From positions 1 through 6,276 of the IMG/VR virus record IMGVR_UViG_3300020029_000033: a DNA stretch of 6,276 nucleotides, one strand, 5' to 3'. The position numbers and the translations under genes are program-made. Numbering within the stretch: position 1 is the first letter of the stretch; the number at the start of each line of letters is the position of its first letter. A model generated the notes under the pieces. The model did no database searches. It had not been told where the DNA came from and was given only the letters and a program-made list of their open reading frames with translations. Shown one piece after another: positions 319-6,276 of the stretch. Source of the DNA: a virus.

Positions 319-2049
319 TTAATAAGGTAAACCATTTCTATCCAAGTTCTGAACAGCATAAACCTGGAAATTGACATTACATAATAACTGGTCATAAGCA
401 ACGGAACAATTAGTACCGGAAACTTGAGGCTCAAAAATAGAGTTCAATTGTTGAGGACGAATTTTCATTGACTGATAAGACCAAGCACCAGAAGAAGTAA
501 GAACATCCCAACCATCAATAGGAGCAGACCAAGACTGATATGCCATACCAGAACGGAACGCAGCATGAACAGTATCAATATTAGACTTCCATTGCCAGTA
601 GCGGAGATTATAACCGATAGACCCAGAAACAGAACGAGACGGGTTGTTATGAAGATTCAGAGCAGGGACAGGCTGCATACCTAACTGGTCGAACGCAGGT
701 TGGGGGAAGTCAGTAATAGCCGTAACAGTCAATTGAGGATTCTGTCCAGTCAGATTCCAATCAACCATAGGAACTGCATGATAAACACACATAATCACCT
801 GATGCTCAGCGCCACAATCATAAGTTAATGTATGTCCAGACTGAGAACCAACACCTTTACCAGCGATAGAAGCCTGAGAATCATTGGTGTCCAAGTTGGT
901 ATTCACAACTTCATTGATATTGATTACATTAGACCAACCACCAATATAATGAGAATGATTACCCATGTATTCAGGGGCTTTAATACCAAATTGGGCAGCC
1001 ATCTGGTCTGAATAGTCCTTACTAGAGAACTGAACTACTTCTTTCCAACGCTGGAGGTATTCCGTTGCACGAATTGAGAGGGCGGAAAGGTCAGAATTAA
1101 GCTGAACAGCACGTTGAGAGGTGAACGTACCAGAGGCGATAACAGAATTAGACTCTTTAGGATTAACGACATAGTCCACATTAGGATTACCAACAGCAAC
1201 AATAGAGTTAGAGGAACCTTGAGGATTAAAAACACCCGGTAAAGCAGCAACCGAACCATACTGGCTATTCGGAAGCATACCCATAAAATAATCTTTCGGG
1301 TAATTGGCATAACGAAGCTGGAGCATCTCAGGAGCGAGATTCAATTGAGACTTTCCGTCCCAATAATCAACATTGTAAGAATAAGCCAAGTGTTTTTCCC
1401 ATTGAGATTCAGAAAAGAAATCATAATAAATCTTCTGATAAGCCAACAACGGAAGAAGATTCACAGTCTGACTAACGCTATAAACCAAAGGATTATCAAC
1501 ATCAAGAATTTCATTTTCGCTTAAACCTAAGTAAGCCTTAGTAATAGCATATTTAGCAGTATTCGAAGACGCAAGGAAAGAACCATATCCAAGCATATCT
1601 AATACCTTAGAAGCACCATAGACATAAGGAAGACCAGCATCATCGAAAACATCATTACCATTAATCGTCTGAAGACTCAATGACAACAAGTTCAACGTTG
1701 TATTCGGGACAGAAGTCAACATCTCGGCGTTAGCAGTGTTACTAGCAGCAGCTGTCATATAATCCGTCATCTGAGTAAACGCTTGCGGCAGCGCGCGAGA
1801 AATCAAGCGTAACGGCACAGCGTAAAAGTCATAATACTCTTTAATACGGGTATATGCAGCCGTATTGACGGGAACAGTACGGGTAAACCAATCGGAAGAA
1901 ATACGATACTTGTTACCAGGAATAGCAATCTGCCAATAACAAGGAAGGATTTCTCCAACTTTTGCCGTAAAAAGTTTTTTACTAGACAAGTCAAAGGAAG
2001 AGCGATGAACGGCAACTTTCGCTCGGTCTAGCGGATTAAAATCACTCAT
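319..2049 (-). CDS. VP1: Major capsid protein (Microviridae VP1 / F-like)
   Basis: The ORF is 576 aa. The N-terminal segment HRSSFDLSSKKLFTAKVGEILPCYWQIAIPGNKYRIS matches the conserved microvirus capsid N-terminal pattern (R..FDLS....T...G.L.P......lPGd...i). Size and position immediately after Rep are typical. Confidence 0.93.
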   Translation of the reverse strand: MSDFNPLDRAKVAVHRSSFDLSSKKLFTAKVGEILPCYWQIAIPGNKYRISSDWFTRTVPVNTAAYTRIKEYYDFYAVPLRLISRALPQAFTQMTDYMTAAASNTANAEMLTSVPNTTLNLLSLSLQTINGNDVFDDAGLPYVYGASKVLDMLGYGSFLASSNTAKYAITKAYLGLSENEILDVDNPLVYSVSQTVNLLPLLAYQKIYYDFFSESQWEKHLAYSYNVDYWDGKSQLNLAPEMLQLRYANYPKDYFMGMLPNSQYGSVAALPGVFNPQGSSNSIVAVGNPNVDYVVNPKESNSVIASGTFTSQRAVQLNSDLSALSIRATEYLQRWKEVVQFSSKDYSDQMAAQFGIKAPEYMGNHSHYIGGWSNVININEVVNTNLDTNDSQASIAGKGVGSQSGHTLTYDCGAEHQVIMCVYHAVPMVDWNLTGQNPQLTVTAITDFPQPAFDQLGMQPVPALNLHNNPSRSVSGSIGYNLRYWQWKSNIDTVHAAFRSGMAYQSWSAPIDGWDVLTSSGAWSYQSMKIRPQQLNSIFEPQVSGTNCSVAYDQLLCNVNFQVYAVQNLDRNGLPY

Positions 2050-2065
2050 AATTAATTAATTTAAA

Positions 2066-3886
2066 TTAGACCATACGGTTAAATATATCATTAGCATCAT
2101 TCAATTTCTTATGCTTAATCATATCGCGGCAGAAGGTAGCAGCACGGAAATCAAGACACCGTTGTAAGTCGCTACTTTGCCCACTATCATAGGTACTTCT
2201 TGTATCGGGTTTCGCGGATTTGATGTAATTACAAGCCGCGAGAGATGGGATTCTGGGATCATCAAACGGAACGTATATCTGTTTTTTAATGGGACGAATA
2301 AATCCGTCTGCATATTCTCCGTCTTCTCCGATACCAATGGACGCCATTTCGCATCCCTCGGCTGGTACATAGAAATACCGAAGCATAGGGGCTGGCAAAG
2401 TCTGTTGTATTCGCAACGAATCACACATTCGTACATAGTCCGCTTTCTTTTCATATTCTATTCCGGTTTTGATGATAAAATTAATACGATTGGCATAAGA
2501 ATCAAGATTGCCACCGATGGGAGGCAAATGCCAATTTCTGAGAAACTTACTGACATAAAGGAATAGCCGATATAATTTATTAATATAAGATTCAATATCG
2601 ACATCAGAAGAACTGTTACAGAGCCTAGTAAGGCACCGAGCATTGTGTAATATAATTTCGTCTTCATTGGTTAGATGATGATTCAATGTAAGATACTGAT
2701 AATAAGCGCGAACAATAGAAAGGATAGAATCGGAATCATAATCTATAATACCGAACCTTGCCATTCTTTTTGGCGCGCTTGCAACAGCTCGAATAATTCT
2801 AGCAATCGAAACAGCATCATCATAGCGAGCACTTGAGAATCGGGGGAGTAAGGTACGGATATACGACACGGGGGGAGTTGATTTAACACTAATCCCGTTG
2901 AAGTTATAGATTCGTCCATTAACGACAGAATCGATCTTTTGTTCAATCGCGTGATAGATGTCTTCACCTTCCTCAAAAACCTCGCCTTTTTCAAAAAATC
3001 CAATAGACGCTCTCTGGCAGGGTCTAAACGCGCGGCATGATCTATATAATAGGGGAGCAGAACTAAGGCTGTTAACGTAACTCGCAACGTACGATGCAGC
3101 TCCACCGCGGGAAGTCTGGAAATCTGAACGACCGAGCTTCCAACTCTTATCATGACACTGTCGTAATACCTTTGAGACTTCTTTCGAGTTCGTGAATAAT
3201 AAGATATGATAATGCGGGCGGAAACGAAATGGTCCGTATTCACCCACAGCGTAGAAATGTAACGTTTCATAAGAACCTAAAGCCGTTTTTAAATGTTTAC
3301 GTAATCGTTTAATATAGTTCTGAACATCGACATAATTCAGAAAAGGAATAAGATTATCCCCGTATCTAACGGAAAGCTCTCCCTCTTTACCGTAAGGTGT
3401 AGCAGATTTCGTCTTAGCGATAAAAGAGCGAATAGCATCCATAGAAAGAAACCAATTATCTTTAACCGATTCATATTGACCTAATTCACGGTTATACGGA
3501 ACTGTACCCTGTACTTGTGTAAAGTATATATGTCGCAATTGTTGTGGATCTGTACAACAATATTCGGATACCGGAACAAACGAATGTTTTTCATAACCAT
3601 AAACAACGCCAGAATCACTTAAAACATCGTCGTATTCAGAATGATACACCTCACAATTAAACAACGGAATGTGCTCGTTATCATAAGTAAGCGTAACAAA
3701 CCAACAATGTTCAAAGGCACTTCCAGCGGTATTCACACGCATGGACGCCTTTTGAGCTCGCTTGTATATACAATAGTCACATTGACCGCAATCTACAGCG
3801 ATACGCTTACCTGTATATCTGTTGGTAATGAAAGAGCGATGCTGACAATGATCAGCAGCTTTAAGTAACTCCGGCGTATATTTCAT
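2066..3886 (-). CDS. VP4: Rolling-circle replication initiation protein (Microviridae VP4 / gpA-like HUH endonuclease)
   Basis: The ORF is 606 aa. RCR motif 1 is FVTLTY (nt 3683-3700). The HUH motif is HYHILLF (nt 3194-3214). The catalytic double-Tyr motif is YVASYV (nt 3074-3091; compare phiX174 gpA YVAKY). All three were verified by hand translation. An N-terminal Cys/His cluster C14-x-H16...C33-x2-C36-x2-C39 lies at nt 3770-3847. Confidence 0.93.
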   Translation of the reverse strand: MKYTPELLKAADHCQHRSFITNRYTGKRIAVDCGQCDYCIYKRAQKASMRVNTAGSAFEHCWFVTLTYDNEHIPLFNCEVYHSEYDDVLSDSGVVYGYEKHSFVPVSEYCCTDPQQLRHIYFTQVQGTVPYNRELGQYESVKDNWFLSMDAIRSFIAKTKSATPYGKEGELSVRYGDNLIPFLNYVDVQNYIKRLRKHLKTALGSYETLHFYAVGEYGPFRFRPHYHILLFTNSKEVSKVLRQCHDKSWKLGRSDFQTSRGGAASYVASYVNSLSSAPLLYRSCRAFRPCQRASIGFFEKGEVFEEGEDIYHAIEQKIDSVVNGRIYNFNGISVKSTPPVSYIRTLLPRFSSARYDDAVSIARIIRAVASAPKRMARFGIIDYDSDSILSIVRAYYQYLTLNHHLTNEDEIILHNARCLTRLCNSSSDVDIESYINKLYRLFLYVSKFLRNWHLPPIGGNLDSYANRINFIIKTGIEYEKKADYVRMCDSLRIQQTLPAPMLRYFYVPAEGCEMASIGIGEDGEYADGFIRPIKKQIYVPFDDPRIPSLAACNYIKSAKPDTRSTYDSGQSSDLQRCLDFRAATFCRDMIKHKKLNDANDIFNRMV

Positions 3887-3891
3887 AATTA

Positions 3892-4197
3892 TTATCTTTT
3901 ATCAATCACTTGGCGACGATCACGTGAACCAAATGAAACATGAATAAAATTAGGATAAATAATAAGTTGGTCAAAAGGAGAAAAACGATCAGAATAATCA
4001 TAGATCATCTCAAGCAACTTACTAAAACTAGTAGAGCCATAAGGCTTGATATCAATAGCTTCACCCATCAGATGTTGAGAATTAGGAGCGCCATTACAAG
4101 CCTTATTCTGTTCGGGAGTGCGACGTGCACTAGTTACTGTAAAATGAGTATTAGAAAGCAACAAATACTCCAGAAAACGCATAAGGAATAAATTCAT
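3892..4197 (-). CDS. Zinc peptidase, LAS-fold / peptidase M15 family (D-Ala-D-Ala carboxypeptidase-like); putative peptidoglycan hydrolase (endolysin)
   Basis: The ORF is 101 aa. TSARRTPEQNKACNGAPNSQHLMGEAIDI contains the canonical SxHxxGxAxD motif (S40, H42, G45, A47, D49; nt 4051-4080). A distal His86 sits in FIHVS (nt 3940-3942). Together these give the three expected Zn ligands H/D/H. The protein is the catalytic domain only, with no wall-binding domain. Confidence 0.82.
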   Translation of the reverse strand: MNLFLMRFLEYLLLSNTHFTVTSARRTPEQNKACNGAPNSQHLMGEAIDIKPYGSTSFSKLLEMIYDYSDRFSPFDQLIIYPNFIHVSFGSRDRRQVIDKR

Positions 4198-4277
4198 AAT
4201 CCAATAGCATTAAGAATGTAACCAAGAGCAGCAGAAATAGCACCAATTACGATTTTCCAAATATTATTACTTTTCAT
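4194..4277 (-). CDS. Small single-pass transmembrane peptide (27 aa), candidate holin-like/lysis accessory protein
   Basis: The sequence MKSNNIWKIVIGAISAALGYILNAIGL has a polar N-terminus followed by a 22-residue hydrophobic helix. Its TGA (4196-4194) overlaps the peptidase ATG (4197-4195) as ATGA. It fills the otherwise non-coding 73 nt between ORF64 and the peptidase. It is the C-terminal part of the 74-aa track ORF 4194..4418. Confidence 0.4.
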   Translation of the reverse strand: MKSNNIWKIVIGAISAALGYILNAIGL

Positions 4278-4461
4278 CAGATTGAGATTTAAGTTCAACG
4301 AAATCATTTTCTTCTTTAATTGAATCCACAATAACAATAAGACCCAACGGAGAAACTCGCTCAGAATAATTTCCAAGACCATCCAAAGAATTGACAATAT
4401 AAGGCGGCATAACATCACGACCAGTTTGTTTTTCTTTAAGGGAAATAATAAATTTTTGCAT
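4267..4461 (-). CDS. Hypothetical protein, 64 aa, acidic C-terminus
   Basis: This is the first ORF after the intergenic region, and its amino-acid composition is protein-like. It lies in a genome with almost no non-coding DNA. I recognise no motif in it. Confidence 0.5.
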   Translation of the reverse strand: MQKFIISLKEKQTGRDVMPPYIVNSLDGLGNYSERVSPLGLIVIVDSIKEENDFVELKSQSDEK

Positions 4462-4856: not shown

Positions 4857-6023
4857 CTAATAACCAATACCATTAGAACTATTATAAATAGTAGTATTAC
4901 GAGGACCGTAATCATTACGGAAAATCTGAGCACCGGGGCGCATAGATCCGATAACATTACCAGCACCAGAAGCAATACGAGATGTATAATCTATAGCATT
5001 ACGAAGGCCGTAGGATTCAAAATCCTTCTTGGCATTTCCAGCAGACCACTTATAATAGTCGCGCAAGGCCTTATCCTTAGAATACTGCATATTCTTACGA
5101 TTATTGACGTTCTTATAATCCCAAAGAGAATCATAATACTGTGTATAGTAAGCCATATTAGTAGCACTTATAAGAGCATCAGCAGTACCAGCAGCTATCT
5201 TATTAGTAATCTTCTGTCCTTGCGCCTGAGCAGCTATCAGGATTGCACGTTGAATTTCAGTTCGAATCTGTTTCTCAGTTAAAGCTCCTTGTTGTACAAG
5301 GTTATAAAGATACTGGGCTTTTGTAAACAGATCTGCTTGCTGCTGGGCATCCATATACTTATTCATAATAGCTTGAGCATCAGACTGTAAATAGACCTGG
5401 GTCGTTTGAGCGGCAGAAAGCTTACCAGCAGTAACAGCGTTCTCTAATTGTTGACGCTCCATAGATTGGTCTAATTCAGCAGAAATACGACCTGTGTCCT
5501 TATTCCAATAACCAGATTGACCAACACCAATATTCTTATAATTAGTATCGCCTAAAATCCTATTTACCAAATAAGGAGTAAGAGTCTCTATCTGTTTAGA
5601 TTCAGAAAGAGCCTTTTTGGCTTGAGCAAACGAAGCCAAAGCAGTATCCACAGTTGAAAGGTCCGGATGAAAAGCCTGGTACGGAATAGGACTGACAGCA
5701 GAAGCTTGAGCACCAGAAGGTGAAGAACCCGAACCAGCACCAGTCTGAGCAGCAGAACCAGACATAAAAGGATTCAAACCACGAGCAATCATAGCTTCAG
5801 GAGAATTATATTCTCGCGACTCATCAACCATTTTTTCTTGCCAATCACGCTGCTTCTGGGCTTCCAGCATATTAAACTTATTAGTAGTCTGAGTATTGCG
5901 ATAATTAGCACGATTAGCGCTAGACTGTTGCAATGTACCGAAGATACCACCAATAGCAGCACCAAGGAAATGATGTTCATTTCTAGGAGAGAGCAGGCTC
6001 TCTCCAACTTCTAGAAACCTCAT
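4857..6023 (-). CDS. VP2: Minor capsid / DNA pilot protein (Microviridae VP2 / H-like)
   Basis: The ORF is 388 aa. It has a Gly-rich hydrophobic N-terminus (FLGAAIGGIFG). The segment AQKQRDWQEKM...EAMIARGLNPF (nt 5769-5864) matches the remembered VP2 pattern (..R.WqE.Ms......aGLNP). A G/S/A-rich linker is followed by a long Q/A-rich helical region, consistent with a coiled-coil tube. The ATG (6023-6021) overlaps the upstream TGA as ATGA. Confidence 0.85.
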   Translation of the reverse strand: MRFLEVGESLLSPRNEHHFLGAAIGGIFGTLQQSSANRANYRNTQTTNKFNMLEAQKQRDWQEKMVDESREYNSPEAMIARGLNPFMSGSAAQTGAGSGSSPSGAQASAVSPIPYQAFHPDLSTVDTALASFAQAKKALSESKQIETLTPYLVNRILGDTNYKNIGVGQSGYWNKDTGRISAELDQSMERQQLENAVTAGKLSAAQTTQVYLQSDAQAIMNKYMDAQQQADLFTKAQYLYNLVQQGALTEKQIRTEIQRAILIAAQAQGQKITNKIAAGTADALISATNMAYYTQYYDSLWDYKNVNNRKNMQYSKDKALRDYYKWSAGNAKKDFESYGLRNAIDYTSRIASGAGNVIGSMRPGAQIFRNDYGPRNTTIYNSSNGIGY

Positions 6024-6276
6024 TGTGCACTAGCGGCAGGGGCGGAATCCGTAGACGGCGCTGCCTGTTCCTCTGCCAGCATAGCTTGAGCATATGCAGT
6101 AAGATCGGATTTCTCATTAGCCAATTGCCGTAATACAGCTTGACGTTCAGACATTGTCTGACAATGCCGGGATACAACACAGTTAAATCGTTCCTCATCT
6201 GTCATACCGTCCATCACAGTAGATTGAGTAGGATGCATCTGGGCAAGGATATTATTAACGTTCATATCACCAAGCA
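6020..6276 (-). CDS. C-terminal part of the same 147-aa wrap-around VP3-like ORF (second window copy)
   Basis: The 81-aa track ORF 6020..6265 begins at an internal Met (residue 67 of the full ORF). Its reading frame stays open to the window end and continues, through the repeat, to the ATG at 308. The stop TGA lies at 6022-6020. Confidence 0.6.
   Translation of the reverse strand, partial: LGDMNVNNILAQMHPTQSTVMDGMTDEERFNCVVSRHCQTMSERQAVLRQLANEKSDLTAYAQAMLAEEQAAPSTDSAPAASAQ
6156..6276. repeat. Terminal direct repeat, copy 2 (assembly overlap of a circular genome)
   Basis: This segment is identical to bases 1-121. Confidence 0.95.

Follow-up and report, generated by a model that had tools for sequence, protein, structure and literature searches.

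Results

A 27-codon mini-ORF overlaps the start of a peptidase gene

The stretch of DNA analysed here, referred to as the window (6,276 nt; IMG/VR virus record IMGVR_UViG_3300020029_000033), covers a circular microvirus genome in full (6155 nt), with 121 nt repeated at the ends as terminal redundancy; its GC content is 40%. The minus strand carries all genes of the window. These code for the VP2 pilot protein (6023..4857), the conserved soluble acidic protein ORF64 (4461..4267), to which no function has been assigned and which has no family match in Pfam or PHROGs, a single-pass membrane peptide of 27 codons plus a TGA stop (mini-ORF, 4277..4194), a peptidase of 101 amino acids that is a putative endolysin (4197..3892), the VP4 replication initiator (3886..2066) and the VP1 capsid protein (2049..319). 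An 81-aa ORF at positions 6020-6265 on the same strand, which resumes at 110-308, constitutes the C-terminal portion of a gene that was split by linearisation. A protein of ~153 aa is annotated at this position in relatives and is called internal scaffolding protein in bajarodmic virus 410.

An initial annotation, made from the sequence alone, had described the mini-ORF and proposed that it might form a holin/endolysin cassette with the peptidase. As described there, the ORF comprises 27 codons: its ATG (4277..4275, minus strand) sits within the last codons of ORF64, 11 nt inside the 3' end of that gene, the sense codons run to 4197 and the TGA occupies 4196..4194. The reported overlap of this stop with the next gene is likewise present, as the peptidase ATG (4197..4195) shares its TG with the TGA to give an ATGA junction (4197..4194, minus strand). 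The distance between ORF64 and the peptidase had been given as 73 nt, but measures 69 nt from the ORF64 stop to the peptidase start. The remaining genes had been described as separated by 5-16 nt; this holds for the gaps between peptidase and VP4 (5 nt) and between VP4 and VP1 (16 nt), but a single intergenic region of 395 nt exists besides.

For residues 9-27, the most hydrophobic 19-residue stretch of the peptide, the Kyte-Doolittle mean is 2.03 and 42% are Gly, Ala or Ser, in agreement with the hydrophobic helix of the initial annotation. The peptide has a basic N-terminus and is helical in an AF2 model, so that by hydropathy and by this model it resembles holins in being a small protein with at least one transmembrane helix. 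The five Gly/Ser/Asn residues of the helix fall inside an 80-degree arc, and an equally tight arrangement was seen in only 35 of 20000 shuffles. Such a one-sided face is typical of helices that associate with copies of themselves or line a channel. The hydrophilic, highly charged C-terminal domain of holins is absent from the peptide, which has no C-terminal tail and ends with the hydrophobic helix. The helix also contains no Pro, whereas the N-terminal helix of phiX174 E carries a conserved one.

The mini-ORF is under purifying selection

GenBank phage records contained 35 microviruses with the peptide, originating from lemur, dog, marmot, rodent and human samples. In IMG/VR, 80 loci were found via the peptidase, and a back-translated peptide pattern gave at least 111 matches, 80 contigs of which were listed. 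The mini-ORF was present at every locus with coverage and intact in all 123 distinct relatives. The in-frame ATG of the 27-residue form was kept in 122 of these 123 sequences and replaced by GTG in a single one. The ORF64 residue that overlaps this ATG can be D, N, H or Y, yet its codon is always xAT followed by G. In the last 22 codons, for which 81 distinct nucleotide versions were available, second-position entropy was ~0 at each codon, third-position entropy was high, twelve residues were invariant and Ser was encoded by both TCN and AGY codons. By the Nei-Gojobori method, applied to 86 genomes, dN/dS was 0.079 for the peptide, 0.21 for the peptidase and 0.37 for ORF64, the dS of which is itself low (0.37); the corresponding amino-acid identities were 92%, 75.5% and 77%. 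Furthermore, the periodicity of variation follows the frames of ORF64, the peptide and the peptidase in turn and changes precisely at the ORF boundaries.

While an ORF of 27 codons could have arisen by chance, conservation of this kind could not, and the mini-ORF is therefore a real, previously unannotated gene under purifying selection. Because the codon-position pattern fits the peptide frame only, selection acts at the level of the protein and not on a nucleic-acid element. A conserved non-coding element was also considered as a candidate and is ruled out by the same pattern; Rfam gave no match in the window.

The peptide belongs to no described family that we could identify. Neither the 27-residue peptide nor the longer, 73-residue form described below gave a significant match in Pfam or PHROGs, and ESM Atlas reached at most 0.77. 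No similarity of the peptide to any holin or lysis family, or to phiX174 E, was detected. When a profile of the peptide was compared with 1.84 billion proteins, only 24 matches were obtained, all of them from the lineage of the window.

Membrane peptides precede the peptidase in other lineages

A second clade consists of bajarodmic viruses 410 and 1134, Dulem viruses 236 and 257 and seven IMG contigs. The peptidases of this clade 2 are ~47-57% identical to that of the window, and a different membrane peptide of 29 aa is found in the same position before the enzyme. Among 11 genomes this peptide hardly varies, and its entropy of 0.47 at the third codon position, compared with 0.07 at the first and 0.03 at the second, again points to purifying selection. 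Its helix has a similar face, made up of Ser, Thr and Gln. The spacer to the peptidase ATG ranges from ~4 to 30 nt and the relative frame is also variable. As spacer and frame vary while the peptide does not, the peptide is a separate gene and not part of the enzyme. Bajarodmic virus 1034, which represents a third lineage, has an annotated 31-aa membrane ORF 25 nt upstream of a different peptidase of 162 aa, and a hydrophobic ORF of 20 aa lies 18 nt upstream of the peptidase in Microvirus D_HF5_96.

The ORF is annotated in no GenBank record of the clade of the window or of clade 2; current annotation either overlooks it or misreads it as an extension of the peptidase. The peptidases annotated in Dulem viruses 238, 226 and 243, which are 124 aa long, open with a wrong-frame reading of the mini-ORF. 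The over-extended coding sequences (L005:896-1270, L006:901-1275 and L007:874-1248; GenBank PP511887, PP511396 and PP511803), which are labelled 'peptidase' or 'hypothetical protein', begin with ~21 residues rich in Trp, Cys and Arg, and the true start is an internal Met. For the peptidase of bajarodmic virus 388 (L232:304-840), the annotation includes an in-frame N-terminal extension with a hydrophobic stretch: either the enzyme is genuinely anchored in the membrane in a SAR-like manner, or its start has likewise been set too far upstream.

These annotations could be taken to mean that the mini-ORF has no product of its own, and is instead a nucleic-acid element or an N-terminal anchor that is joined to the peptidase by frameshifting or readthrough, as in a SAR-type endolysin. 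The Dulem virus annotators indeed ran the peptidase across the mini-ORF, and the extension in bajarodmic virus 388 is both hydrophobic and in frame. We nevertheless regard this explanation as highly improbable: the Dulem extensions use the wrong frame, the codon-position pattern points to the peptide frame, conservation extends to the stop as well as to the peptidase ATG, and neither frame nor spacer is fixed in clade 2. For the same reasons, a fusion of peptide and peptidase by frameshift or readthrough was rejected. A SAR endolysin, in which a weakly hydrophobic N-terminal helix is fused to the enzyme, does not match the two separate ORFs seen here, and N-terminal fusions of peptide and peptidase in the protein library are apparent only, as they stem from chimeric assemblies.

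The peptide is probably also the C-terminus of an overprinted protein

The frame of the peptide is the +1 frame of ORF64, and a 73-codon form with the same final membrane helix could start within that gene (4415..4194, minus strand; ATG at 4415, GTG at 4418). Since long +1 ORFs are common in this genome, openness of the frame by itself was set aside as evidence, and the long form was judged only against randomised synonymous codons and against the peptidase gene as control. With synonymous codons randomised, 4.39 stops per genome are expected in the +1 frame of ORF64, but only 0.19 were observed, and the probability of an open frame was 0.006 per genome. In the peptidase gene, the corresponding frame contained 5.06 stops versus 4.84 expected. 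Most genomes have an ATG at ORF64 codon 16 (window 4415), and the residual stops in the +1 frame are located before it, at codon 2 or 8. Only 3 of 86 genomes carry a stop in the interval from this ATG to that of the peptide, and in two of these three a rearrangement of the duplication type described below is found nearby. For comparison, the +1 frame of VP4 (2066-3886, minus strand) has 14 stops versus ~21 expected under synonymous randomisation and contains a 175-codon ORF (2743..3270); its stop depletion is far weaker than that of ORF64.

Synonymous variation of ORF64 is reduced in the same region. Among identical ORF64 codons, third-position differences fall from 0.24 in codons 1-15 to 0.10-0.13 in codons 17-48, compared to 0.29 in the peptidase and 0.31 in the peptide, and this amounts to a 2- to 3-fold drop in synonymous variation from codon 17 onwards. 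The depletion of stops together with the reduced synonymous variation of ORF64 suggests that the 73-aa protein is probably made as well, and the peptide would then also be the C-terminus of an overprinted membrane protein with two starts. The frame is also open in the divergent relatives Dulem 238, 226 and 243 and mar56. The long form would begin with a hydrophobic region, continue with a basic stretch and a variable linker in which in-frame duplications are tolerated, and end with the conserved helix. Such tandem duplications, 7-10 codons in length, were observed in the C-terminal part of ORF64 (window 4267-4330, minus strand), which also codes for this linker, at four loci (L015, L027, L033 and L083).

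There are reservations about the long form. In this T3-rich genome, hydrophobicity of a +1 frame comes automatically, and ORF64 reaches only the 90th percentile. Clade 2 does not show the long form consistently, and AF2 predicted one long helix with an uninformative pTM of 0.40. The two conserved in-frame ATGs are 46 codons apart, whereas the canonical spacing of holin dual starts is 2-3 codons. In being a membrane protein overprinted in another gene the locus resembles phiX174 E, although this applies to the long form only.

The neighbouring gene codes for a minimal LAS-type peptidase

The 101-aa protein belongs to the Pfam family Peptidase_M15_3 (38.9 bits versus a cut-off of 23.2) and matches the endolysin family phrog_894 with an E value of 6.9e-15. 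Its zinc ligands H42 and D49 (H-x6-D) and the distal H86 are invariant in 39 sequences. With the AF2 model (pLDDT 87.8), the best Foldseek match was the Streptomyces zinc DD-peptidase 1lbu with a probability of 1.00, and the T5 endolysin, VanY, ChiX, LysECD7 and Ply500 were matched as well. The initial annotation had called the enzyme muralytic and signal-less. A minimal LAS-type zinc peptidase of the M15_3 family agrees with the former, and the enzyme indeed appears to be devoid of a recognisable signal sequence, its N-terminal helix lying within the confident fold.

The nearest cellular homologues, with 32-38% identity, are longer M15_3 enzymes from Prevotella, Prevotellaceae and Bacteroidales MAGs, which may be taken as a weak hint at a Bacteroidales host. 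Several of these genes are followed by a conserved gene of ~190-270 aa (L096-L104). No membrane ORF was found upstream of the bacterial homologues in the Prevotella/Bacteroidales MAGs, indicating that the pair was not imported as a unit from anything found. A 134-aa M15_3 peptidase that is 40% identical to that of the window is encoded by phage phiHBP1 (PV598014, L228), a cultured microvirus of Bacteroides fragilis; no membrane mini-ORF precedes the gene. This phage provides a usable experimental system for peptidase-dependent lysis in microviruses.

M15_3 peptidases have been described in Alpavirinae and Gokushovirinae as possible endolysins acquired by horizontal transfer, with no holin being reported, and unknown ORFs adjoin five of the 11 peptidase genes (Roux et al., 2012; PMC3394797). 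In more recent work on Occultatumvirinae (2024; PMC11499846) and on a Rhizobium microvirus (PMC9512667), the peptidase is treated as the lysis gene and a membrane partner is not mentioned.

The peptide is maintained independently of the peptidase

All 71 peptidase-bearing contigs among the pattern matches listed have the ATGA junction, and it is also found at the loci identified via the peptidase, one of which has GTGA. This arrangement is what one would expect if translation of the peptidase were coupled to that of the peptide. A membrane mini-ORF is thus conserved at the same place in relatives carrying the peptidase, which was the comparison suggested with the initial annotation. As in holin loci, the gene lies next to that of the endolysin; this is not universal among peptidase-bearing microviruses.

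At least seven relatives, for which whole contigs of 5.4-6.15 kb were searched by tblastn, have no peptidase but retain the peptide and the open long frame. These contigs have VP1, VP2, VP4, ORF64 and the scaffold-like gene in common with the window, and the peptide is followed by ~60 nt and then by VP4. The spacer is AT-rich in all seven (L113, L149, L159, L166, L168, L181 and L189), and their peptides share a distinct C-terminal signature, with an otherwise invariant Asn being replaced by Ser in six of the seven. A VP4 tree with very long outgroup branches places the peptidase-less genomes at scattered positions within the peptidase-bearing ones. Their scatter despite a common signature suggests recombination of modules, and the peptidase has likely been lost with recombination. 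Conversely, mar63, phiHBP1, bajarodmic viruses 66 and 1107 and one gokushovirus have a peptidase but no such peptide. As the peptide is kept without the peptidase and the peptidase occurs without the peptide, the peptide is an autonomous core gene of the lineage and not only a helper of the enzyme.

This distribution bears on how closely the two genes work together. In a strict two-component cassette, the sole task of the peptide would be to let the peptidase cross the membrane, and both would form an obligate unit. The conserved adjacency and ATGA overlap, the analogous peptides before the peptidase in clade 2 and in bajarodmic virus 1034 and an enzyme without recognisable signal sequence are in line with such a unit. 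Yet the peptide is maintained under constraint in at least seven genomes devoid of any peptidase, a peptidase occurs without such a peptide in at least five microviruses, the charged C-terminal tail typical of holins is absent and the peptide is probably the C-terminus of a longer overprinted protein, which makes a strict cassette quite unlikely. The holin-endolysin interpretation is partly supported: the conserved mini-ORF and its ATGA junction speak for it as a way of working, whereas obligate pairing and membership in a known holin family are not supported.

The window encodes a muralytic enzyme, and in this it differs from the phiX174 E system; the 7 relatives without peptidase, in contrast, correspond to it. 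The peptide might be a single-gene lysis protein of the kind of phiX174 E or the Sgl proteins of ssRNA phages, blocking a membrane step of murein precursor synthesis or export, with the peptidase only speeding up breakdown of the wall. A small membrane protein overprinted in a +1 frame is reminiscent of E, extreme conservation is expected where a specific protein is targeted, and the peptide persists where there is no muralytic enzyme at all. On the other hand, the peptide has no similarity to E, its helix is C-terminal and free of a conserved Pro, there is no known target, and a peptidase confined to the cytoplasm would be of no use until the cell bursts. We accordingly give such a mode of action a low probability, similar to that of the strict cassette.

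The independence of the peptide from the peptidase would equally suit a membrane accessory with no part in lysis, comparable to phiX174 K. Such an accessory might tune burst size, exclude superinfecting phages or anchor replication or assembly, and would owe its position before the peptidase only to genome compaction. Except for its size and its one membrane helix, the peptide has no hallmarks of holins. However, as far as the peptidase-less genomes were inspected, they show no obvious alternative candidate for lysis, and membrane peptides recur before unrelated lineages of peptidases. An accessory role outside lysis is thus unlikely in our view.

Discussion

In this study, we identified a membrane peptide of 27 residues whose gene ranks among the most conserved ones of a widespread microvirus lineage that is abundant in mammalian gut samples. 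To our knowledge, the mode of lysis of microviruses outside the phiX174 group is not known, and we know of no export signal in, or described partner of, the M15 peptidases of many microviruses. The peptide is a concrete and testable lysis candidate, and in our view the strongest one for the means by which these phages open the host cell, even though relatives keep it without the peptidase. A search of the full-text literature on Microviridae and microviruses for holins, transmembrane proteins and endolysins returned no description of such a peptide; coverage was incomplete, and an earlier description is possible.

In our interpretation, the peptide serves as a membrane lysis effector resembling a holin or phiX174 E, and a minimal LAS peptidase without signal sequence is coupled to it. 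More specifically, it might act autonomously by causing a membrane lesion and also give the coupled peptidase access to the cell wall, an explanation to which we assign roughly an even chance. To this end, the peptide would insert into the cytoplasmic membrane with its basic N-terminus inside, self-associate via the Gly/Ser/Asn face and damage or permeabilise the membrane late in infection. A chain of 27 residues should be inserted only after its release from the ribosome, and the basic N-terminus predicts the N-in orientation; both expectations rest on established knowledge of membrane-protein insertion. The same helix would also be made as the C-terminus of the 73-residue +1-frame product, so that two products would arise from two conserved starts. 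The 101-aa peptidase would be translated directly after the peptide and reach the murein through the membrane lesion, or once it has formed, and the two proteins would act like holin and endolysin. What the comparisons show is that the gene is real, constrained and membrane-like, adjoins the peptidase gene and is independent of it; translation of both forms, the membrane lesion, the role in lysis and the coupling are inferred. Since peptidase-less relatives keep the peptide, it would be the primary effector and the peptidase an accessory. A holin by itself does not lyse a Gram-negative cell, and the peptidase-less relatives would therefore need another route.

One might also speculate that the lineage lyses its host by means of a pore-forming peptide of 27 residues that suffices in genomes without the peptidase, derives from a gene with two starts overprinted on ORF64, the long form serving as regulator or antiholin, and is mostly paired with the 101-residue endolysin. 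We consider this scenario as a whole doubtful; if true, Microviridae would have their first holin-like system, and no smaller two-component lysis cassette would be known. For lysis studies, a membrane-active peptide of 27 residues and a murein peptidase of 101 residues would be unusually small parts. The locus is also likely a new case of overprinting with two starts.

With the peptide as a membrane lysis effector, the locus can be compared with several known systems. As in lambda S/R and in phage 21, where the pinholin S21-68 is combined with a SAR endolysin, a small membrane gene lies directly upstream of a muralytic gene and overlaps it. Two in-frame starts are possible, as in the cassettes of tailed phages, and the Gly/Ala/Ser-rich helix recalls the helices of pinholins and SAR proteins. 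In contrast to the holins of tailed phages, to which it has no sequence relation, the peptide has only 27 residues, a single helix and no charged tail; its starts are 46 instead of 2-3 codons apart, it persists without the enzyme and the virus is a microvirus. The phiX174 E protein, a MraY inhibitor of 91 residues with an N-terminal helix and an essential Pro, is similarly a microvirus membrane protein in the +1 frame of another gene, and like E the peptide could account for lysis in relatives that have no muralytic enzyme. Unlike in E, the conserved helix of the peptide forms the C-terminus, falls outside the overlap and is provided with a start of its own, and a peptidase then follows. The phiX174 K protein is likewise a small hydrophobic product of an overlapping microvirus gene; K is dispensable and poorly conserved, whereas the peptide is the most conserved gene of its neighbourhood.

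The peptidase, for its part, shares its fold and zinc ligands with the T5 L-alanoyl-D-glutamate peptidase (2mxz), LysECD7 (8q2g), Ply500 (2vo9) and Serratia ChiX. The T5 endolysin and ChiX each act together with a separate membrane protein, which in the case of ChiX is the holin-like ChiW. With 101 aa, the enzyme of the window is shorter than these M15/LAS endolysins, and the first ~42 positions of the Pfam model have no counterpart in it. It belongs to the same family as the M15_3 peptidases of Alpavirinae, Gokushovirinae and Occultatumvirinae, which have been proposed to be lysis enzymes acquired horizontally (PMC3394797, PMC11499846) and for which no membrane partner was described in these studies.
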